A stretch of 64,000 nucleotides of DNA from Chloroflexota bacterium (GCA_034717835.1 JAYELZ010000256.1:1639-65638), one strand, 5' to 3'. Counted from the stretch's first letter, positions 35,037 to 44,817 are shown. Made by a program: numbers and translations. The notes: generated by a model from the sequence alone, not told the origin.

Positions 35037-35395
35037 GGGGTAGTCTCCCCGGTTGCTGTTTCGTGGTTAGATTCTCTGGAACAGATTATACGCTTAAGAG
35101 AGCAAAACTTCAAGGTGGCTAATTAGTTTCCTGAAGGTTTCTGTAGTGAGATGTTCTTTTTTATGGAAGAGGCATAGTGCAGCTATTGTTATTCCATGTA
35201 TGTTTAGGGCATTTCTAACCAAAAGTAGCATGAGGGAGTTTTGGGGATAGAATAGTTTATATTCAGTTGTGTAGTTGCCAATCTTATCTTTCCGATGTAT
35301 TATGAAGGGAAGTTTTGGGAAGAGTCCATGTATAGCAATGGTTGGGTAAGCTATCCTTTTTTAGATTCATGCTGACATCCCAACAGGTGTGCTCT

Positions 35396-38300
35396 ATGGG
35401 TATTAAGTTTGAAATTTGGCGGCAACCAGGACAATTCTCATTGATGTTCCCAGAGTCTTGGGTGGGTTTCATTTTGATGGGCCTTTACTTGGTTCTGGGG
35501 GTGGGGTTTCTATTTGCGCGGCGCAATGATTTCAAGCGTATGGATCTCAAAGCCTGGTTCATTTTTGTTGTGACTCTCTTCCTGCTCTTGCCGGCCAGTG
35601 CCGGTTTGATTGTCTCGCGGTCAGTGGGAGGGGTGCTGTTGATTGTTCCGGTTACTGTGTTGCGCTCTCCCCCCACACTTTCTCTTGTGGCGTTATTGAT
35701 AGTAAGTGCGCTTAGCCTGTGGTGGGGGCCGGGACCGGGAGCGGTTGCCGGCTTTTTGGCGGGGGTGGCGAGTGCTTGGGTTTCTCCGCAAATTCTGGTT
35801 GACACTTTTGCCTGGGCGGTTTGGGGTATGTTGTTGGGAGAGCTCTGGCAGCAGCCTTATCAGGGCAGTCTTTTTGATATTTTACGTTTACCGTCGGTTG
35901 TTCCGGTGGGAGCTGCTTTAGCTCCTTTGATATTGCTCAGTTTCAATCGTTTAGTTGAATCTATGTCTCTGGGCACGCTGCTGGTTGTTGATTATGCAGT
36001 TGCTCCTTTTCGTGATGCGGGGTTACTCTGGCTGTTGAGTGGCTTGGCAGTGGGAATTATTTTCACAGTGCTCTTCTGGCTGTGGCCCGACATTCGTCCG
36101 GTGCAACGTTCGGACATAATCTCTCTCTTCCGGCGTTCATTACGCGCACGTTTAATGATTGCATTGGTACCGCTCCTGGTGTTGAGTATTGTCTTCTCGA
36201 TTATGGCTGTTACCCAGCAGGCGCTCTCACTCGCTCGCCAACAAGCCTTGGGGGAGATGGCGCGGAGCGCTGATACCGCGGCTAGCGGTATCGCTAATTT
36301 TTACTACACCGGTTCCAATTTGCTGGAGGAATTCTCTGTCGCTCCAGCTCTGCGTGAACCAGATACCCGCGCGGCAGTCTTGCAAACCGATCGTCGAGTA
36401 GTGCCTTTCTTCCAAGAAATGCTCCTGGTGGATGCTGACGGCGCAGTAGTAGTTTCTGTCCCCCCCGATATCCCTGTGCCTCCGCTGACGGCGGAGGAAC
36501 AGGAACTGATAGCACAAGCCTTAGACTTTGGCATGTCACGCTCTACGCATGTGACGGCTCTTCCTGGTGGCGAACAACGACTGACATTCATCCATCCCCT
36601 TTTGGAGGGGGATGTCGCTGTCGGTGCAATTCTGGGGCGGGTGGATTTTAGCATCAACCCTAGTACCAAGCGCGTTCTAGAGACCTTACAGGGCACTCGC
36701 GGCGAGGGAACCGGTTTTATCTTGGATGATCGGAATGTAATCATTGCTTATCCCGATCCCCGTGTTGTGTTGCGCCCGTGGAAACCAAGTGAGAATGTAG
36801 TCTCATATCCAATGGAAAATGGCGCAGCGTATGAAGATGTCGGCCCAGATGGGAATCGAGTGTTGGTGTATCTGCGCGAAGTAGTGCGCGGGATTACAAT
36901 GGTGATTCGCTTGCCCTTCACGGTGGTTTTAGAGGCGGCGGCTTTTATCTCTAATCCTTTGCTGTACGTGCAATTGGGCACCGGCATTTTGTTGGCTTTG
37001 ATCTTGTCCTTGTTGGCCGCGCGCATTACCCGCCCGCTGGAGGCGCTCTCTGAGGCAACTCATCAAATCGAACAAGGGAATTTGGAAACCCCGGTGCATA
37101 TCTCTGGCGAAGACGAGGTGGCGCGATTGGGGAGCTCTTTCGAGTTGATGCGACGCCGTTTGCGTGACCGGTTGAATGATCTCTCACTTCTCTTGCAAGT
37201 TTCGCAGTCTGTTTCTGCAACTTTGGAATTGAAGGAAGGGGTTCCGTTAATTCTGGAAGGTATATTGGCGGAGACTCAGGCGGTTGTCGCTCGTTTAGTA
37301 GTTTTGAAGAGCGATGAGTACTCTCAACAGCTATTCTCGGTGGGAGCAGAGCATGAGACATTCGCACAACTAGATAAGGCTATCATTATAGCCTTGCAGC
37401 GCCGCCACGAGCCGTTGGTGAGCCAATATCTGCGGCGAGAAAATATCATGCCGGCGCTCAACGATGTCTTGCGCAGTTTGGTCGCTTTCCCGGTGCGGAT
37501 TCACCAGCAGATGGTCGCGGTGATGTGGGTGGGCGCTAGTGAGCCGGCGGCCTTTGACGAGGCCCGTATGAATTTCCTCAACACGCTGGTAAGTCAAGCC
37601 GCGGTTTTGGTGGAGAACACGCGGCTCTTCCAGGCAGCAGAGGGAGGGCGCCAACGCTTAGCTGCCATTTTGTCCAGCACTACGGACGCTATCTTGGTCA
37701 CGGATCAAGAACAGCAGCTGCTATTGATCAACCCGGCTGCACAGCGTATCTTGAAGTTGAGCGAACTGGCTTATGGGCGTCCAGTGGCACAATTGGAGCA
37801 GATTCCCGCCCAACTTAAAGAGGTGCTAGTCCGCCCGTATGATAAACCGGCGGCTTCTCCGACTGTAGAGGTTGAATTGTCGGATGGAAGAGTATTTGTG
37901 GCTAGCGTGGCGCCTGTCAAGAGTCTCTCTGAGATTGAAAATGGTAGTCGGGTGGTGGTGCTACGGGACGTGACGCATTTCAAAGAATTAGATGAGATGA
38001 AGACCGAGTTTGTGTCCACCGTCTCCCATGATTTACGTGCCCCGCTTACTTTTATTCAAGGTTATACGAGCATGTTGACGATGGTGGGGCAGCTGAACGA
38101 TAAGCAGCAAGAGTACATGCAGCGGATTCTAAAGGGGATTGAGCAGATGAAAGACCTGATTGATGATCTGCTCAATCTACGTCGGATCGAGGCCGGAGTG
38201 GGGATTGTCACCGAGCCGTGTCGCTTGGGGTTGGTGATGTTGGAAGCAGTGAGTTCTATGCGCGCACGGGCGGTGGAGAAAGGCATCTCATTGCATTTGG

Positions 38301-38689
38301 AGCCTTCCGAAGGTACGTATTCTGTCATGGGAGATCGTATTCTGCTCCGTCAAGTTATCAGCAATTTGATCGATAATGCCATCAAATATACCTCAGCTGC
38401 AGGAGAGGTACGCCTTGGACTAGTGGCCAACGAGCGCGATGCAGAGGTAGTGCTACACGTCACCGATACCGGGATGGGGATCTCGGTGGAGGAGCAGCTC
38501 CGGCTTTTTGAGAAATTCTATCGCATAAAGCGGCGGGAAACCACCAGCATCCCCGGGACTGGATTGGGATTAGCGTTAGTCAAATCGATTGTGGGCCGGC
38601 ACGGAGGGCGCGTCTGGGTAGATAGCAAACTTAATGAGGGAGCCACCTTTTTTGTAGCGTTGCCTATGGTATTAGCTGCGGAAACGTAG
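35396..38689 (+). CDS. Large multi-domain membrane sensor histidine kinase (polytopic N-terminus, HAMP, GAF, PAS, HisKA, HATPase_c)
   Basis: About 8 predicted TM helices over the first 300 aa, a HAMP (...EDEVARLGSSFELMRRRL), a GAF, a PAS (TDAILVTDQEQQLLLINPAAQRIL), then H-box STVSHDLRAPLT and ATPase boxes. The start is uncertain: the ORF track's TTG 35342 or ATG 35396. Confidence 0.8.
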   Translation: MGIKFEIWRQPGQFSLMFPESWVGFILMGLYLVLGVGFLFARRNDFKRMDLKAWFIFVVTLFLLLPASAGLIVSRSVGGVLLIVPVTVLRSPPTLSLVALLIVSALSLWWGPGPGAVAGFLAGVASAWVSPQILVDTFAWAVWGMLLGELWQQPYQGSLFDILRLPSVVPVGAALAPLILLSFNRLVESMSLGTLLVVDYAVAPFRDAGLLWLLSGLAVGIIFTVLFWLWPDIRPVQRSDIISLFRRSLRARLMIALVPLLVLSIVFSIMAVTQQALSLARQQALGEMARSADTAASGIANFYYTGSNLLEEFSVAPALREPDTRAAVLQTDRRVVPFFQEMLLVDADGAVVVSVPPDIPVPPLTAEEQELIAQALDFGMSRSTHVTALPGGEQRLTFIHPLLEGDVAVGAILGRVDFSINPSTKRVLETLQGTRGEGTGFILDDRNVIIAYPDPRVVLRPWKPSENVVSYPMENGAAYEDVGPDGNRVLVYLREVVRGITMVIRLPFTVVLEAAAFISNPLLYVQLGTGILLALILSLLAARITRPLEALSEATHQIEQGNLETPVHISGEDEVARLGSSFELMRRRLRDRLNDLSLLLQVSQSVSATLELKEGVPLILEGILAETQAVVARLVVLKSDEYSQQLFSVGAEHETFAQLDKAIIIALQRRHEPLVSQYLRRENIMPALNDVLRSLVAFPVRIHQQMVAVMWVGASEPAAFDEARMNFLNTLVSQAAVLVENTRLFQAAEGGRQRLAAILSSTTDAILVTDQEQQLLLINPAAQRILKLSELAYGRPVAQLEQIPAQLKEVLVRPYDKPAASPTVEVELSDGRVFVASVAPVKSLSEIENGSRVVVLRDVTHFKELDEMKTEFVSTVSHDLRAPLTFIQGYTSMLTMVGQLNDKQQEYMQRILKGIEQMKDLIDDLLNLRRIEAGVGIVTEPCRLGLVMLEAVSSMRARAVEKGISLHLEPSEGTYSVMGDRILLRQVISNLIDNAIKYTSAAGEVRLGLVANERDAEVVLHVTDTGMGISVEEQLRLFEKFYRIKRRETTSIPGTGLGLALVKSIVGRHGGRVWVDSKLNEGATFFVALPMVLAAET

Positions 38690-38710: not shown

Positions 38711-38758
38711 CCCGTCAACCGTTGGTATTTTGCTAGCGGCTGACGGGTTTTGGTTTTT
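38711..38758. terminator. Bidirectional terminator between the convergent kinase gene and the P-loop gene
   Basis: CCCGTCAaccg...cggcTGACGGG followed by TTTTGGTTTTT. Confidence 0.6.
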
Positions 38759-38773
38759 AAGTATGAGGGATGT

Positions 38774-39499
38774 TTACCGTGCTCGGTAGCGTTCCCAGAG
38801 GGTGGATAATGTCTTCTCTAGACGTTCGCCTAGGGCTGCTCCCCGTGGCGTGGTGACATCATCCTCGTTTTCGAAAACGGCGTAAGGCATTCGCGTTCCT
38901 TTGATGGTTAGATATTGCGTAGCGTCCCCCTTGACAGTTTCCCAATCATCCTCACGGTAGAGCCGCTCAAGTTTTTCATCGCTCAAGCTATGCTCCAGGA
39001 GGCTGTCGGGGCGTGCTGGATTGGCGCGGGCGCGATTCTTGCGTAGAGATTCCGCGTAGGAGACATGGACATACAGCAAACTCCCGTGTTGCAAAATTTG
39101 GGGGGAGAGGTGTTGGTAAGCGGCTTGATATCCTCCGTGTTCCGTGCCGCGCGAGAACTCTATCAGCGTAGTATATTGCTGCTGATAACGAGGGTGGTCG
39201 CGTAGGCGTTTGTCATACTCCAGTCCCAGGCGTTCAATTAACAAATGCCAGAAGTATTCCTCTTTGAAATAACCTTGCGCATCGCTGTGCAAACGGGGGT
39301 ATCCCCTGCGGTTGAGCAGGGCGTCTTCCTCGAACCAGGTCCAGAGCAGGGGGAAATCATCAATGCTATCTAGCTTGCCGACATGGAAACGGGATTGGCG
39401 TTCCGCCAGCGGGGTCTTGGTTAAATAGTCAATAATTTCACTCTTGCCGGCGCCTGGCCGAGCATTGAGTATCAATATGGGAAAGATGTTGGAATTCAT
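38774..39499 (-). CDS. P-loop (Walker A GAGKS) kinase-like protein of unassigned family
   Basis: N-terminal ILILNARPGAGKSEII. 241 aa with no TM segments. Confidence 0.5.
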   Translation of the reverse strand: MNSNIFPILILNARPGAGKSEIIDYLTKTPLAERQSRFHVGKLDSIDDFPLLWTWFEEDALLNRRGYPRLHSDAQGYFKEEYFWHLLIERLGLEYDKRLRDHPRYQQQYTTLIEFSRGTEHGGYQAAYQHLSPQILQHGSLLYVHVSYAESLRKNRARANPARPDSLLEHSLSDEKLERLYREDDWETVKGDATQYLTIKGTRMPYAVFENEDDVTTPRGAALGERLEKTLSTLWERYRAR

Positions 39500-39523
39500 T
39501 AGTTTCTCCTTTGAAAATAAGTC

Positions 39524-39556
39524 TAAAGTTGCCAGTCAAAAGTCTAAAGTTTGCTG
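39524..39556. repeat. Two copies of the 12-nt direct repeat AAGTCTAAAGTT flanking a TTGACT-like hexamer in the promoter region of the P-loop gene
   Basis: aAAGTCTAAAGTTgccagtcaaAAGTCTAAAGTTt, and a 7-bp palindrome TGCTGCA...TGCAGCA at 39559-39593. Confidence 0.45.
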
Positions 39557-39677
39557 CAAAACCCAGGCGTTCGCGTTAGTGCAGCATTTTTGTGGTTGTT
39601 GGTGTAAGATATGTAGCCGGATGGAGGGGGTGAGTCTACGGCAAAAAGCAAAAATTTCACCGCAGGACATAGAGGGC

Positions 39678-40904
39678 TTACCTGGCGCGGAGAATCTTCA
39701 ACCGGTTGCTGATGAGGAACAGGAGACTGGGGAAAAGTATCAATAGCGTGAGCAATGTCCAGGGAGCCACCGTGCTCCACAAGATAAGTCCCACAGTCCA
39801 GAAGTGTTGGGTCGGCTCCACCGGTTTTTCATCTTCGGCCAGCCAGGCTTGCCAATCGCGTTCCAACTGCGGTAATTCTAACCCCAAGCCTCTTTGCAAG
39901 CCCCGCGAGCACCCCAACCCGTCCACATAGGCCGCCAGTAGTGTGCGGATGCCGGACCAGCCGTAGGTCTGTTGGAGGTAATTGGTCACACTTTGGCTCT
40001 CTGCATAAGCCAGCACGATCTGTTCCGTCGGTAAGGATTGGAAAGAGGAGCAGAGGTCGCTTAGCGGGAGATAGCCATTTTCTTGCGCCGCTCTCTCCAG
40101 GGCGAGCGGGTAGCTGCTCTGGGGGCGTTGTTCAAAATGTGAGGCCAAACCTTCGTTTAACCACGTGGGGAGATTTTCGTAGCCGGCTTTCCCCAGCTGT
40201 TGGTAGAGTAGCAGATGGGTAATTTCGTGGGGGATAAATTGCTGCAACTTGAGTTGGGCTTCATCCGTGGGGCGGACGGCTATAAAAATACCGCCAGCTT
40301 CTGGCCGCGCTTCACCGCCTACCCATTCTAGGCCGGTCAAGCGTAACGCCTGTTGGAGATCCGGCTGAGAAGGGTAGATGTAGATATGGAAAGGTTGCAC
40401 TAGCGTGGAAGCCTCTGCAAATAGTGATGTAGTTACTTCTTCCAGGGCGCGGCGAGCGGCGTCGCTGCCCGTGGTCATCACTGCGACGGAGCCAGAAATC
40501 CAATGCAAGGTAAAGGTTTCTTCTTGCAGCGTCTGCCATTTGAAGCGGGTGTCTTCGTAGCGGAACTGCTGTTTGGTCGTCGTGGATTGGACCCCGTCGG
40601 CGGTGGGATATTGCCACCAATAGGTAACCTGGCAAAATGGCGGTAGCGGTCGGGTGTGGAGATCGCGTTGATAATGCGCTAGCCCAGCTACTACTGCTAC
40701 GGTTTGTACTACGGTATTTTCGTCACTGAGGCGCAAAAAGAGTTGCGCCTCAGTTGCGGGATTATCCGCCGGTAGTTCCAAGGTTATCTGTAAACTTTGA
40801 CCAAAGGAGTAGCTATGCTCCGTAGTTGGCTCGCCTTGAGCCAACGCTGGCAACGCCAGGAGTAGTGATAAGATAATCAAAAGCGCGCAGCGGTAAATTC
40901 TCAT
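39678..40904 (-). CDS. Secreted, C-terminally membrane-anchored zinc metallopeptidase (gluzincin-type HEITH...NEGLA)
   Basis: Signal peptide MRIYRCALLIILSLLLALPALAQ, HEITHLLL followed by NEGLASHFE, and a C-terminal TM helix. The ATG at 40904 has a GAGGGAA RBS. The ORF track starts at TTG 40922. Confidence 0.65.
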   Translation of the reverse strand: MRIYRCALLIILSLLLALPALAQGEPTTEHSYSFGQSLQITLELPADNPATEAQLFLRLSDENTVVQTVAVVAGLAHYQRDLHTRPLPPFCQVTYWWQYPTADGVQSTTTKQQFRYEDTRFKWQTLQEETFTLHWISGSVAVMTTGSDAARRALEEVTTSLFAEASTLVQPFHIYIYPSQPDLQQALRLTGLEWVGGEARPEAGGIFIAVRPTDEAQLKLQQFIPHEITHLLLYQQLGKAGYENLPTWLNEGLASHFEQRPQSSYPLALERAAQENGYLPLSDLCSSFQSLPTEQIVLAYAESQSVTNYLQQTYGWSGIRTLLAAYVDGLGCSRGLQRGLGLELPQLERDWQAWLAEDEKPVEPTQHFWTVGLILWSTVAPWTLLTLLILFPSLLFLISNRLKILRAR

Positions 40905-40978
40905 GGTTAATTTCCCTCGCAATACAGGTTGGCGCTACTGAAAGAACTTGGATTTTGTATTAGGGTCGCAGTTCAACT

Positions 40979-42007
40979 TCAGATATCATCTACTGGTCGT
41001 TGCCACGGATGCCACTCTTCTTCCCAGCTCAATTCGCCTTCCCCGTTGAACTCCTCTGGAGCAGCGTAGAATTTGTTGAGGTCTTGGTGTAGGAATTCTA
41101 GCTCTTGGAGGGCTTCCTCGGCTGCCGTTTGTAACACCTCATTCTCGGAATCTTGATAGCGTTGCAGCGTGCGGCGCGCGCGTTCCCCGCCGATCTGGCC
41201 CAAGGCCCATAAGGCCGTTTGTTGTATTTCCGCATCCACATCCTGAGTCAACTCTATGAGCGTGGGGATGGCCGTGCTCACAGCCAGTTCGCCGCAAGCG
41301 CGGACCGCTTCGTAGCGCATGGCGGGATTTGCGGATTCCAGGTGTCGGGTGACGGTGCCTCTCCAACGCGAGTCCGCACTGCGTCCCATGGCGAAAACGG
41401 CGCTGAGCTGCATTTCCTCTGCAGGGTCTTCGTACGCGGCTTGAATCAATTTTGTTATTTCTGGTTCCCCGACGTAGGCCAGGGATTCCAGTGCCCGCCG
41501 GCGTACTTCCAGGGTCTCGGTTGGCTTGCGATGCGCTTCAAGCAGGAAGTGGTAAGCTTTCTCGAAAAAATAGGGAGAGATTTGTTGTAGCTCGCCCCAG
41601 AGAATGAAATTAGCCAGAGCTTGCGCGGCGGCCAAGCGGACGGCCTCTTCTGCATCTTCCGAGAGGCAGTGTCCTAGTTGGGAGATGAGACGTACATCTT
41701 GCTCTTCCCACAGTCCCTGGATAGCGGCGGCGCGGATTTGTCCATCGAGATCGGTCAACGCCAGCGTGAAGACGGCGCTGAAATCTAGGGCGAAGTCATT
41801 TTCGGCTAGTTCAATGAGCGTGGTGAGCAATCGCCGACGTTCCGTGATGGGAAGTCGCCGCCAAACTTGAGCCAACCGCTCCTGCTCGGCCACCGATAGA
41901 CTGGCTAACTGCGCCCATTGCTTGGCGTCAGGCAGTTGCTGGTGTTCTTCTAAGGCTTGCCAGAGTTCTTCTTTGTTGGTCGTAGGATCGTATTCGCTAA
42001 AATCCAT
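40979..42007 (-). CDS. HEAT-repeat (PBS-lyase-like) protein
   Basis: Multiple ~30-aa HEAT-like repeats with A..AL..IG motifs. Acidic and soluble. Confidence 0.6.
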   Translation of the reverse strand: MDFSEYDPTTNKEELWQALEEHQQLPDAKQWAQLASLSVAEQERLAQVWRRLPITERRRLLTTLIELAENDFALDFSAVFTLALTDLDGQIRAAAIQGLWEEQDVRLISQLGHCLSEDAEEAVRLAAAQALANFILWGELQQISPYFFEKAYHFLLEAHRKPTETLEVRRRALESLAYVGEPEITKLIQAAYEDPAEEMQLSAVFAMGRSADSRWRGTVTRHLESANPAMRYEAVRACGELAVSTAIPTLIELTQDVDAEIQQTALWALGQIGGERARRTLQRYQDSENEVLQTAAEEALQELEFLHQDLNKFYAAPEEFNGEGELSWEEEWHPWQRPVDDI

Positions 42008-42046
42008 GTGGTACTCCTTGTTTATCCACAGATTGCTATTTGTGTT

Positions 42047-43264
42047 CTAGGGCAGCAGCGCCGGTAAATCGACCGGATGGAGCAGATCCAAGACGGTGAT
42101 CACTGCAAAGATCAGGAGGAGTATGGATAAAGCCACCTGGTGGATGCGTTCTTGCAAGCGGGGACTGAGCGGTTCTTTTCTGAGCAACTCAATAACCGTG
42201 AGGAGGATGCGTCCCCCGTCCAAGGCCGGGATGGGTAACAGGTTGAAAATCCCCAGGCTGACGCTGACCAGGATGAGCAGGTTGAGGATGGGGACTAACG
42301 TCCCTTGTGTGAAGCTCTGCTCAATGCTCTGATAAGCGATCCGGCTGATATTGATAATTCCTACCGGGCGGGCGGCTTCGGCTGGAATTAGTCCCTGTAC
42401 CAGCTCCACCGGCATCCAGATGGTCTTCCAGGTGATGAAGAAGAAGGTCCGGCTGCCTTGCAGCAGTGCTTGGCCGATGGGTACCGCTTCAATGTGATAC
42501 TCGGTCGGTTCGCCCTGGAGCATGACGCCCATGGAACCTTCGTTCGCGGGTGGAGCGATGCGTGGGGTGAGTGCGACGGTGAGCTCTGCGTCGCCACGTC
42601 CCACGGTGAGCGTCATCTCTTGGCCCAGCTGTTGCTGGGTACGCGCTATTACTTCCTCTATGTCCAACCCTCGCTCTCCGTTGATGGCGAGGATGACATC
42701 ATCCGCCTGCAAGTTGACTTCTGCGGCCGGTGAATGCGGCGCGACCTGCGTGATACGTACCAGCATCTCATCAACGATAGGGATGCCGGTGGTGAAGAGC
42801 AGAATTGCCAGCACCCAGGCGGTTAGTAAGTTCATCAGCGGGCCGCCCAGGTAGATGAGGATGCGTTTGACGGGCGATTTAGCGTAAAGGCTATGCTCGT
42901 GGGCGGCCTGGAGTTCAGCCGCCGTTGGCGGCACTTTCTCCGTTGCGTATGGCCTCATATCATCTTCGTCCATTAGCACGGGTTCCTGAGTTTCCACCAG
43001 CAGCGTTAGTTCTTCCTCCGCGGGAGGCTCAACGGTACCTGTGAGATCCTCTTCGCCTTCCATCCGGGCAAAGCCGCCCAGCGGCAGCCAGTTGAGGGTG
43101 AATTCCGTCTCTTGCCACTTGAATAACTTCACGATGCGCGGCGGGAGGCCAATACCGAATTCTCTAACCCAGACGCCTAGCCATTTGGCGATGAACATGT
43201 GCCCCATTTCGTGTAAAACAATCAATGGTACTAAAGCTACTACAAAGCCAATTACTGAATTCAT
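42047..43264 (-). CDS. rseP: Site-2 protease / RIP zinc metalloprotease (RseP family, M50) with one PDZ domain
   Basis: HEMGH in TM1, a PDZ domain, and a distal LPIPALDGG motif. Confidence 0.85.
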   Translation of the reverse strand: MNSVIGFVVALVPLIVLHEMGHMFIAKWLGVWVREFGIGLPPRIVKLFKWQETEFTLNWLPLGGFARMEGEEDLTGTVEPPAEEELTLLVETQEPVLMDEDDMRPYATEKVPPTAAELQAAHEHSLYAKSPVKRILIYLGGPLMNLLTAWVLAILLFTTGIPIVDEMLVRITQVAPHSPAAEVNLQADDVILAINGERGLDIEEVIARTQQQLGQEMTLTVGRGDAELTVALTPRIAPPANEGSMGVMLQGEPTEYHIEAVPIGQALLQGSRTFFFITWKTIWMPVELVQGLIPAEAARPVGIINISRIAYQSIEQSFTQGTLVPILNLLILVSVSLGIFNLLPIPALDGGRILLTVIELLRKEPLSPRLQERIHQVALSILLLIFAVITVLDLLHPVDLPALLP

Positions 43265-43400
43265 AATGCGTTGGACTCCTTTTTTTAGCTGGGTGTGGAT
43301 TTGAAATCTTCCAGTCCAGAGTTTCAGGTTTTAATTGACGATTGTATTATACTATGAGGCAGAATGCGTGTCCAGCGAAAAGAAAGGGCATGTTTGGGCG

Positions 43401-43424
43401 TGTATAACAATTATAATTGATACA
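43401..43424. promoter_or_regulatory. 24-nt near-perfect palindrome (TGTATAACAATTATAATTGATACA) overlapping a TATAAT -10 box, ~26 nt upstream of the glycoside hydrolase gene
   Basis: TGTATaaCAATTatAATTGaTACA, with TATAAT at 43412-43417. Confidence 0.5.
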
Positions 43425-43449
43425 CCGAGTCGCTAAACTGGAGGGAATT

Positions 43450-44817
43450 GTGCGCCAACTGAAAAAATGCTGGGGAATACTTTTATTGTTAGGTTTATTA
43501 TTGCCAGTTCAGCCCCTGGCGGCTCAGACGGGAGGCGAACGTTTGGTTGTAGCCTTTTATTACGCCTGGTTCGACTGGAACACCTGGGGGCTGGCGCTCC
43601 CAGATCAGCCGACGCAACCCTACCTCTCCGCTGACCCGACCACCATCGAGAGGCATGTGGTGCAGGCCCAGCAGGCGGGCTTGGATGCGTTGGTCTTGGA
43701 TTGGCTCGGCCCTCAAGTGGAGAATAACCAGACCGAGACTAATATGCGAATTCTGTTGGATAAAGCGGTGGCCCACGGATTAAAAGCGGCGCTGACGGTG
43801 GATATTGCGGGGCCGTTCATCAACAATCAGAGTGAGCTGGTGACGGCGTTGACGGCGCTGCGTGATACCCACGCCGCGCACCCCGGATACCTGCGCGCGG
43901 ATGGCCGACCGGTGGTCTTTTTCTGGCGGCAGAATCAATACTCGGTGGAAAGTTGGCTCGCGTTGCGCCAACAGATCGACCCGCAACATACTATGCTCTG
44001 GATCGCTGAAGGATTAGAGACCGATTATCTGCGGGTTTTTGATGGACTTTATCTTTACAGCGTGGCTTGGTCAATTGAGCCAGATAGCGTGTTGCTCCGC
44101 TGGGGAAGTGAGGTGCGGCAGTGGAGTGCGGCGCAGGGAACTTCTCGCTATTGGGTAGCGACAACCATGCCCGGTTACGATGATTACGTCACGGGACGTG
44201 CGGATGCTTTTGTCCAGCCGCGTGACGGGGGCAACTATTACCGCACTTGTTGGCGCGGAGCGCGGGAGAGTGGGGCCGACATGGTGGCCATCACCAGCTT
44301 CAACGAATGGTTAGAAGGGACTTATATTGAGCCATCGCACTTGTACGGAGATACTTACCTCAACTTGACCGCGCAGTTAGCCAATGAATACCGCCAACAG
44401 AGCGTGCCGCCTACCGCTACGCCCGCACCGCCCACGGTGATCCCGCCGACCGCGACGCCGGTTTCTCCCACATTGACCCCGCCGCCTACCGCGACGCTGT
44501 TGCCCTCCCCCACGGCGACTTTTACGCCCACGGTCAAGCCAACGGCTATGCCAACAGCCACGTTAACTCCCACAGCTACTCCTTTTCGGTTGCCCACCCC
44601 CACACCGACAGAGAGCGGGCCGTTGTTGACTGCGACGGCGACTGAAGAGCAGCAGTTGCCAGTTCTGCCGGCTAGGGAGGAGACCCCGTTAGTTCCGGCC
44701 CGGCTCCCGGTGAATGGGAGTACCCCGCCACGCTCCTGTTCACTGCTGCCCGTGGCCTTGCTCTTTATTCCGCTGGGGGTTGTACATCTAAAGCGCGTAT
44801 GGTATAGTCGCAGTTAG
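43450..44817 (+). CDS. Secreted glycoside-hydrolase-like protein with a Pro/Thr-rich linker and a C-terminal membrane anchor
   Basis: The GTG at 43450 has a GGAGGGA RBS and a signal peptide (MRQLKKCWGILLLLGLLLPVQPLAAQ). A TIM-barrel-like hydrolase region (VVAFYYAWFDWNTWG...) is followed by a ~90-aa PT-rich linker (PTATPAPPTVIPPTATP...) and a C-terminal hydrophobic segment. Confidence 0.6.
   Translation: MRQLKKCWGILLLLGLLLPVQPLAAQTGGERLVVAFYYAWFDWNTWGLALPDQPTQPYLSADPTTIERHVVQAQQAGLDALVLDWLGPQVENNQTETNMRILLDKAVAHGLKAALTVDIAGPFINNQSELVTALTALRDTHAAHPGYLRADGRPVVFFWRQNQYSVESWLALRQQIDPQHTMLWIAEGLETDYLRVFDGLYLYSVAWSIEPDSVLLRWGSEVRQWSAAQGTSRYWVATTMPGYDDYVTGRADAFVQPRDGGNYYRTCWRGARESGADMVAITSFNEWLEGTYIEPSHLYGDTYLNLTAQLANEYRQQSVPPTATPAPPTVIPPTATPVSPTLTPPPTATLLPSPTATFTPTVKPTAMPTATLTPTATPFRLPTPTPTESGPLLTATATEEQQLPVLPAREETPLVPARLPVNGSTPPRSCSLLPVALLFIPLGVVHLKRVWYSRS

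Follow-up and report, generated by a model that had tools for sequence, protein, structure and literature searches.

Site-2 proteases are universal, but only in a few model bacteria, none of them Chloroflexota, have the proteases and substrates that work with them been identified. Among the closest described systems are the Escherichia coli DegS–RseP–RseA, Bacillus subtilis PrsW–RasP–RsiW and Rip1-type pathways; known site-1 proteases include DegS-type serine proteases, PrsW, signal peptidase, Prc/Tsp and SpoIVB. Here we analyse a window of 64,000 nucleotides (nt) from a Chloroflexota bacterium (GCA_034717835.1 JAYELZ010000256.1:1639-65638) in which the genes of interest, at 38774-43264, encode an RseP homologue, a HEAT-repeat protein, a membrane-anchored zinc peptidase and a Walker-A protein. 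The first three of these form the unit that concerns us. Like the described pathways, the trio includes an M50 enzyme with HExxH and N…LDG motifs and a PDZ filter, and a gene for an extracytoplasmic protease is associated with it, at the site-1 or trimming position. Unlike those pathways, it has no anti-sigma/sigma pair or other substrate encoded nearby, its candidate first protease is a PF13485 gluzincin rather than one of the site-1 types listed above, and its cytoplasmic HEAT protein has no counterpart in them.

The usual neighbours of rseP are cdsA, uppS, dxr, frr and bamA (PMC6411480), all of which are missing beside rseP here, and because that is the usual neighbourhood, the partnership of rseP with the HEAT and peptidase genes appears to be clade-specific. 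Full-text literature searches returned no papers for PF13485, only an irrelevant one for 'Peptidase_MA_2', and no paper in which an operon joins a site-2 protease to a HEAT repeat. The three genes do form a group, one not described before and a clade-specific variant of the RseP context with two uncharacterised partners. It names two candidate RseP partners in a large group of bacteria that has been little studied and is for the most part uncultured, and it stands as a comparative-genomics lead with testable partners rather than as a demonstrated system.

The rseP–HEAT–peptidase unit and its conservation

A first-pass annotation of this DNA had described four genes in order on the minus strand, and all four open reading frames were recovered at its positions. 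The genes and the signals around them are as follows.

42047-43264, minus strand: rseP, 405 amino acids (aa); Peptidase_M50 and one PDZ domain; TIGR00054
40979-42007, minus strand: gene for the HEAT-repeat protein, 342 aa; HEAT_2, E = 6.5e-29
39678-40904, minus strand: gene for the Peptidase_MA_2 gluzincin, 408 aa; Peptidase_MA_2, E = 1.1e-28
38774-39499, minus strand: gene for the Walker-A (ARPGAGKS) protein, 241 aa; P-loop motif, no family match
43346-43374, minus strand: promoter-like TGGACA-N17-TATAAT, 11/12 consensus positions; conserved in relatives
39519-39530 and 39540-39551, minus strand: direct repeat, two exact copies of AACTTTAGACTT; adjoins the conserved unit and lies outside it

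Identical proteins are held at NCBI as MEA3310333.1 to MEA3310330.1, from a Chloroflexota metagenome-assembled genome (MAG), under the names M50 family metallopeptidase, HEAT repeat domain-containing protein, peptidase MA family metallohydrolase and hypothetical protein. The gaps measure 39 nt between rseP and the HEAT gene, 74 nt between the HEAT and peptidase genes (peptidase start ATG 40904), and, as first reported, 178 nt between the peptidase and Walker-A genes. Gaps of 39-56 nt had been claimed within the trio; the lower figure stands, whereas the upper one is obtained only if the peptidase starts at TTG 40922. We consider ATG 40904 the more likely start, because a GAGGGA Shine-Dalgarno sequence precedes it and the identical NCBI protein, MEA3310331.1, is 408 aa long. 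An AAGGAG Shine-Dalgarno sequence likewise precedes the HEAT start, 39 nt past the rseP stop.

The one strong promoter-like site in a consensus scan falls within the 152 nt that separate rseP from a divergent GH99-like gene, ~82 nt ahead of the rseP ATG. The other matches of the scan were weak and lay inside coding sequence only, and all three intergenic gaps were free of promoter-like and terminator-like sites. In a search of the 200 nt upstream of rseP in relatives, 24 loci had TGGACA-N16/17-TATAAT, and a second lineage had TTGCGA-N17-TATAAT at 12 loci. Because these non-coding hexamers are kept between genomes whose proteins are only ~40-58% identical, we read TGGACA-N17-TATAAT as the predicted sigma-70-type promoter of the operon. 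There was no Rfam match anywhere in the window, and a riboswitch or known leader RNA was not found. Taken together, the short gaps, the Shine-Dalgarno sequences before the HEAT and peptidase genes, the gaps free of signals and the one promoter-like site upstream strongly support a predicted operon of rseP, HEAT and peptidase genes with one conserved promoter upstream of rseP, in agreement with the earlier judgement that these three genes are probably co-transcribed.

The neighbourhood was compared in a genome set (a scan with the peptidase profile, one genome per species, giving 80 loci) and a metagenome set (a scan of metagenome contigs with the HEAT profile, giving 80 further loci). Together with three loci from exact-protein look-ups, these sets gave 97 loci of Chloroflexota genomes and metagenomes with the HEAT gene. 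Clustering of their HEAT proteins gives 77 groups at 90% identity and 35 groups at 70%, and the lowest pairwise identity is 29%. Among the species-representative genomes, all 14 of the closest peptidase loci carry rseP, HEAT and peptidase genes in the same order on one strand, while peptidase identity declines from 48% to 29% across them; they are labelled Anaerolineae, Anaerolineales, Anaerolineaceae or Anaerolinea, except for two labelled 'Chloroflexia'. The other 66 genome loci belong mostly to Dehalococcoidia and other Chloroflexota, and 65 of them lack both rseP and the HEAT gene; the remaining one (L015) ends at a contig edge on the upstream side. The linked peptidases group as one clade in a neighbour-joining tree, and the sole extra member of this clade is the same L015, whose upstream side lies beyond the contig end.

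The junctions themselves are tight. Wherever there is enough flank, the peptidase gene is the next after the HEAT gene (90 junctions, median gap 41 nt), and at 16 of these 90 junctions the two genes overlap, by 17 nt in L081. For the 84 junctions in which rseP precedes the HEAT gene, the median gap is 11 nt, and many of them are at -4 or +1. Four Anaerolineaceae-type loci have a gene for an AEC/Mem_trans transporter between the HEAT and peptidase genes (junctions of ~900 nt), with ends that abut or overlap the neighbouring genes:

L009, 7087-7998: inserted AEC-type transporter
L011, 3576-4487: inserted AEC-type transporter
L012, 7088-7999: inserted AEC-type transporter
L013, 6996-7760: inserted AEC-type transporter

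On its outer sides, the unit is found across at least four unrelated flanking contexts:

Pattern 1: GH99/AspRS upstream; an Hsp70-like gene or a histidine kinase downstream
Pattern 2: SpoIIE-TrkA-AAA upstream; RNase-H-like, radical SAM, acylphosphatase and 412-aa membrane protein genes downstream
Pattern 3: mevalonate-diphosphate decarboxylase upstream; acylphosphatase and RadC downstream
Pattern 4: the arrangement without rseP

The trio has therefore been maintained through repeated rearrangement, and the neighbourhood conservation whose absence had been named beforehand as the refuting result is clearly present, with 97 loci, 90 HEAT–peptidase junctions and 84 rseP–HEAT junctions. These comparisons lend strong support to the view that the trio is probably kept by selection throughout Anaerolineae-type Chloroflexota.

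The three predicted proteins

The products had been read in the first-pass annotation as an RseP-family intramembrane metalloprotease, a soluble HEAT-repeat protein and a secreted, C-terminally anchored HEITH...NEGLA zinc peptidase, and all three assignments agree with the profile searches, hydropathy scans and homologue alignments that follow.

RseP matches Pfam Peptidase_M50 at E = 2.6e-49 (168 bits against a cut-off of 27.2) and scores 182.8 bits against the NCBIfam equivalog TIGR00054, whose cut-off is 147.55. Four hydrophobic segments lie at residues ~3-21, 146-164, 322-340 and 377-395, and a single PDZ domain (residues 169-232) lies between the second and third. The HExxH motif, HEMGH (residues 18-22), is in the first membrane segment, with H18, E19 and H22 invariant in 12 orthologues, as are N341, P344, P346, D349, G350 and G351 of the second motif, NLLPIPALDGG. 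Among solved structures, it matches Aquifex aq_1964 (8.5e-37) and E. coli RseP (5e-27). These features describe an active-looking single-PDZ site-2 protease, and because its score exceeds the TIGR00054 equivalog cut-off, it looks like an ordinary housekeeping orthologue and not a specialised paralogue. An acidic insertion of ~55 residues (roughly 70-125) in the first cytoplasmic loop is found in the window's lineage only; we considered it as a conserved docking site for the HEAT protein and rejected the idea, as other linked RsePs lack the insertion.

The HEAT protein scores 100.5 bits with HEAT_2 and 55.2 bits with HEAT, and HEAT_PBS also matched. An AlphaFold2 model is all-helical, an 18-helix solenoid with a mean predicted local distance difference test (pLDDT) score of 89.4, in which residues 8-307 are folded and are followed by a disordered, acidic, Trp-containing tail; its structural matches are generic ones only, to designed alphaRep and armadillo proteins. 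With a pI of 4.5 and neither a signal peptide nor a membrane segment in the hydropathy scan, it is predicted to be an acidic solenoid of the cytoplasm. The repeat type (HEAT_PBS, HEAT_2) is that of the PBS-lyase/HEAT-like proteins NblB and CpcE/F, yet the protein scores only 49.6 bits against the NblB equivalog (cut-off 300) and also falls far under the cut-offs for CpcE, CpcF and CpeY, and the cyanobacterial context of those proteins is not matched here. The family has more than 2000 matches, of which all the named ones come from Anaerolineae, and in every locus examined it was located only beside the linked peptidase clade. Mean column identity is 43-51% in the HEAT family versus 34% in the peptidase family.

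The peptidase matches Pfam Peptidase_MA_2 (PF13485) with 100.8 bits against a cut-off of 32.4. In an alignment of 35 homologues, H226, E227 and H230 of HEITH (226-230) and E251 of WLNEGLA are invariant; Y300 is also invariant, and the Cys285/Cys332 pair is nearly so. A signal peptide (…ALA|QGE) is followed by an Ig/FnIII-like beta-sandwich (~27-135), a thermolysin-like catalytic domain and a C-terminal membrane helix, and the hydropathy scan agrees, with an N-terminal signal-like segment and one C-terminal membrane segment. The predicted enzyme would thus sit on the outer face of the cell as a C-terminally tethered protein, a location that fits a site-1 or trimming protease.

Two groups of known enzymes resemble it. 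When the family profile was run against the PDB, it matched M1 aminopeptidases, 3cia among them at E = 8.4e-5, and in the 3cia alignment the M1 segments with HExxH, WLNEG and the catalytic Tyr stand opposite HEltH, WLNEGla and laYaeS. The M1 aminopeptidases (PepN, LTA4H, the cold-active 3cia and ERAP) also share the beta-sandwich followed by a thermolysin-like domain. Unlike them, the peptidase is membrane-tethered, has no GxMEN Glu (at the position of this exopeptidase motif its homologues read VGGEA, VGGQA or VAGHA, and neither Glu nor Asn is conserved) and has no C-terminal helical domain, since in the model the catalytic domain leads directly into the membrane helix. Its Glu ligand lies 20 residues after the second His, compared with 18 in the M1 family, and no match to PF01433 (Peptidase_M1) was obtained at E<=0.01. 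The closest folds are the peptidase domains of the M9 bacterial collagenases and of M30 hyicolysin and lugdulysin, although identity to these is only 13-15%, the accessory domains differ, and the protein here stays anchored to the cell instead of being released. From its fold, closest to the secreted M9 and M30 endopeptidases, and its motifs, we read it as a predicted cell-tethered endopeptidase with an M1-type active site.

Homologues outside the linked clade (L016-L080; for example L017 694-7465 and L021 2175-6114), from Dehalococcoidia and other Chloroflexota, lie in the one-strand string atp-nfi-prfB-peptidase-radC-SBP_bac_5, that is, among ATP synthase genes and the genes for endonuclease V, a peptide chain release factor and RadC. 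At 37 of 66 loci these are followed, on one strand, by the gene for an oligopeptide-type binding protein (SBP_bac_5), which hints at a peptide-scavenging ancestry of the peptidase. As a separate observation, an acylphosphatase gene often follows the peptidase gene (~30 loci; e.g. L012 9245-9538), and one homologue of 497 aa (P0031) has Peptidase_MA_2 and acylphosphatase domains in one chain.

Shared pathway or independent functions

The assignment of the predicted products to three compartments, namely the outer face, the membrane and the cytoplasm, is strongly supported. Our preferred reading, held tentatively, is that RseP, the HEAT protein and the ecto-peptidase act in one envelope-proteolysis pathway. 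The ecto-peptidase would cut or trim the extracytoplasmic parts of membrane-anchored proteins; the remnants would now pass the PDZ size filter of RseP and be cleaved within the membrane; and the HEAT solenoid, on the cytoplasmic side, would either bind the released fragments or dock on RseP and regulate it. The substrates would not be cis-encoded anti-sigma factors, and general quality control, not signalling, may be what the pathway serves; we dropped the claim of signalling because the neighbourhood encodes no substrate and no sigma or anti-sigma factor. That the trio forms a three-compartment relay specific to Anaerolineae, with a clan-MA ecto-endopeptidase as the site-1 protease of RseP, the HEAT protein as a dedicated receiver or regulator of fragments, and a target other than an extracytoplasmic function (ECF) sigma factor, is a more specific proposal that we regard as unlikely.

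These proposals modify the roles suggested in the first-pass annotation. Its candidate for a site-1 protease, the extracytoplasmic peptidase, has the right location and intact catalytic residues, though no substrate is encoded with the operon. Its suggestion of the HEAT protein as an adaptor does not hold for an extracytoplasmic site-1 cut, since a protein with no signal peptide or membrane segment and a pI of 4.5 is predicted to be cytoplasmic and so could not act outside the cell. The annotation had noted that no sigma or anti-sigma factor is present, and this is also what we find within ~10 kb. Because no sigma or anti-sigma domain is encoded in the operon or over that distance, and no other substrate nearby, the cluster falls outside the definition of a regulated intramembrane proteolysis cascade.

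Several observations weigh against a shared pathway. Beyond the lack of a sigma or anti-sigma gene in the operon or within ~10 kb, the conserved unit in relatives consists of three genes only. The HEAT protein and the catalytic domain of the peptidase lie in different compartments, and the basic cytoplasmic tail of the peptidase is ~8 residues long and unconserved, so direct contact between the two proteins is hard to picture and binding of the HEAT protein to this tail is unlikely. Six loci of one sublineage (L081, L115, L118, L121, L132, L138) keep the HEAT–peptidase pair without rseP in the 2.6-6 kb checked upstream; in L081 the upstream genes encode a subtilase and a phosphatase. Because peptidase homologues elsewhere in the phylum sit in mixed housekeeping strings, conserved adjacency in Chloroflexota need not mean a shared pathway, and the conservation of the trio is confined to one class, so that shared ancestry contributes to it.

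The main rival, which we rate almost as likely as the shared pathway, is that the three genes are co-transcribed and functionally independent, with RseP clearing signal peptides and membrane remnants, the ecto-peptidase digesting extracellular or surface peptides for nutrition or turnover, and the HEAT protein having a cytoplasmic role of its own. RseP is a standard TIGR00054 equivalog, the unlinked peptidase homologues sit among prfB/nfi/atp and radC with SBP_bac_5 so often following (37/66) that peptide scavenging is a good fit, one sublineage has no rseP beside the pair, and in four loci the AEC-type transporter has inserted between the HEAT and peptidase genes while leaving the rest undisturbed. 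Independence accounts less readily for a trio whose junctions have stayed very tight, often overlapping, while its flanks were rearranged at least four times, or for the confinement of the HEAT family to the side of this one peptidase clade. The linked peptidases are moreover a distinct clade, and because other Anaerolineae-labelled MAGs (e.g. L033, L052, L066) carry members of the unlinked clade, the linked copy may be a specialised one. A different division of the unit would make the HEAT protein and peptidase the true functional pair, possibly a transmembrane module with the solenoid controlling biogenesis, stability or activity of the peptidase via a third membrane protein, and rseP a frequent but dispensable companion. 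The adjacency of the two genes in all 90 assessable loci, their overlap at 16 of the 90 junctions and the six loci in which rseP is missing beside them all point this way. We nevertheless judge it improbable: the rseP–HEAT junctions are tighter still, the peptidase offers no conserved cytoplasmic segment for contact, and the HEAT proteins of loci without rseP share 70% identity or more with those of loci that have it, so the loss of rseP looks recent and local.

The M1-like features of the peptidase raise one further alternative. M1 enzymes, as in the structures of LTA4H, ERAP and APN, carry an ARM/HEAT-like C-terminal domain, and the peptidase has the M1 domain order with HExxH, WLNEG and the catalytic Tyr, yet no helical C-terminal domain, while a helical-repeat protein is encoded directly upstream; the two could then be a split M1-like peptidase in which the HEAT solenoid stands in for the C-terminal lid. 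The compartments clash, the catalytic domain being exported (signal peptide, anchor, basic cytoplasmic tail, conserved Cys pair) and the HEAT protein lacking an export signal, and Pfam shows no similarity between the HEAT protein and the C-terminal domains of M1 enzymes; this arrangement is very improbable. To return to a single envelope-proteolysis pathway, if the coupling were true, regulated intramembrane proteolysis would gain both a site-1 or trimming protease of a new class and a cytoplasmic component of a new kind; if it were false, the operon would still give the uncharacterised PF13485 family its first functional context.

One membrane protein deserves mention for its topology. In the second lineage, a 412-aa type II membrane protein is encoded downstream of the peptidase gene. 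Its cytoplasmic N-terminus is 10 residues long and its match to a FecR domain is weak (E 0.001, below the cut-off); by topology alone it could be an RseP-type substrate. The stretch that encodes it, L082 8273-11312 and its equivalents in ~20-30 other loci, also carries genes for an RNase-H-like exonuclease, a radical SAM protein and an acylphosphatase.

The Walker-A gene and the surrounding window

The fourth gene had been set apart from the trio in the first-pass annotation, and its distribution bears this separation out. It is absent from the neighbourhood in 80 of 80 genome loci and present in 1 of 51 assessable metagenome loci and in L083, so we rejected it as a member of the operon. It adjoins the peptidase gene only in the window's lineage (L083, L090) and stands alone, in an unrelated context, in L084. 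The Walker-A gene is a lineage-specific neighbour, presumably with an unrelated role.

Its product carries the motif A13-RPGA-G18-K19-S20, with G18, K19 and S20 invariant in 21 homologues, and has no membrane segment in the hydropathy scan. The description 'kinase-like' is apt as far as the Walker A motif (ARPGAGKS) goes; Pfam, NCBIfam and the PDB place the protein in no defined kinase family. The family has no Pfam match even at E<=10 and no NCBIfam match at E<=0.01, and single-sequence and profile searches of the PDB gave a best E of 0.05, to only the P-loop region of TRIP13. There are ~5000 homologue clusters, the top 120 of which are at least 60% identical, and mean column identity over 21 sequences is 72%. 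It appears to be an orphan P-loop family that is near-universal in Anaerolineae.

The gene had also been placed behind a repeat-bearing promoter of its own. The repeat is real: the two AACTTTAGACTT copies, 12 nt each, are 21 nt apart from start to start (two helical turns) and lie 20-52 nt upstream of the Walker-A ATG. A 12-nt direct repeat has a chance expectation of 0.27 matches per window, and two or more occurred in 6 of 100 shuffles. The promoter was not recovered, since the consensus scan called no sigma-70-like site in the 178-nt spacer, and the spacer with its repeats is not conserved in L083 and L090, the two relatives with the same gene order. TTGACT-N14-TATTTT, noted by eye in the spacer, was rejected as a promoter, its spacing being too short and the spacer not conserved. 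The AACTTTAGACTT pair could be an operator-like site.

On the other side of the Walker-A gene, an inverted repeat, CCCGTCAGCCG … CGGTTGACGGG (38712-38750), lies between it and a convergent histidine kinase gene. The CCCGTCAGCCG/CGGTTGACGGG hairpin may be a shared terminator; it is without a T-run and so was missed by the terminator scan. The histidine kinase (35342-38689, plus strand, 1115 aa) has multiple membrane segments with dCache, HAMP, GAF and PAS domains. A possible conserved partner, it recurs convergent and downstream of the operon in the window's lineage (L089, L090, L094, L107) and divergent, ~2.7 kb upstream, in the second lineage (L108-L111, L135, L148 and others); weaker histidine kinase matches beside the operon may be generic kinase similarity.

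At the other end, divergent from rseP, a GH99/GH71-like protein is encoded at 43417-44817 on the plus strand, with a signal peptide, a long Pro/Thr-rich linker and a C-terminal membrane segment. It shares the layout of a tethered ectoenzyme with the peptidase and is conserved beside rseP in the window's lineage only. Positions 1-30000 of the window have a GC skew of ~+0.2 along plus-strand genes that include rpoB, fusA, tuf and secY, an ordinary highly expressed cluster, and the genes between these are presumed to be ribosomal-protein operons.

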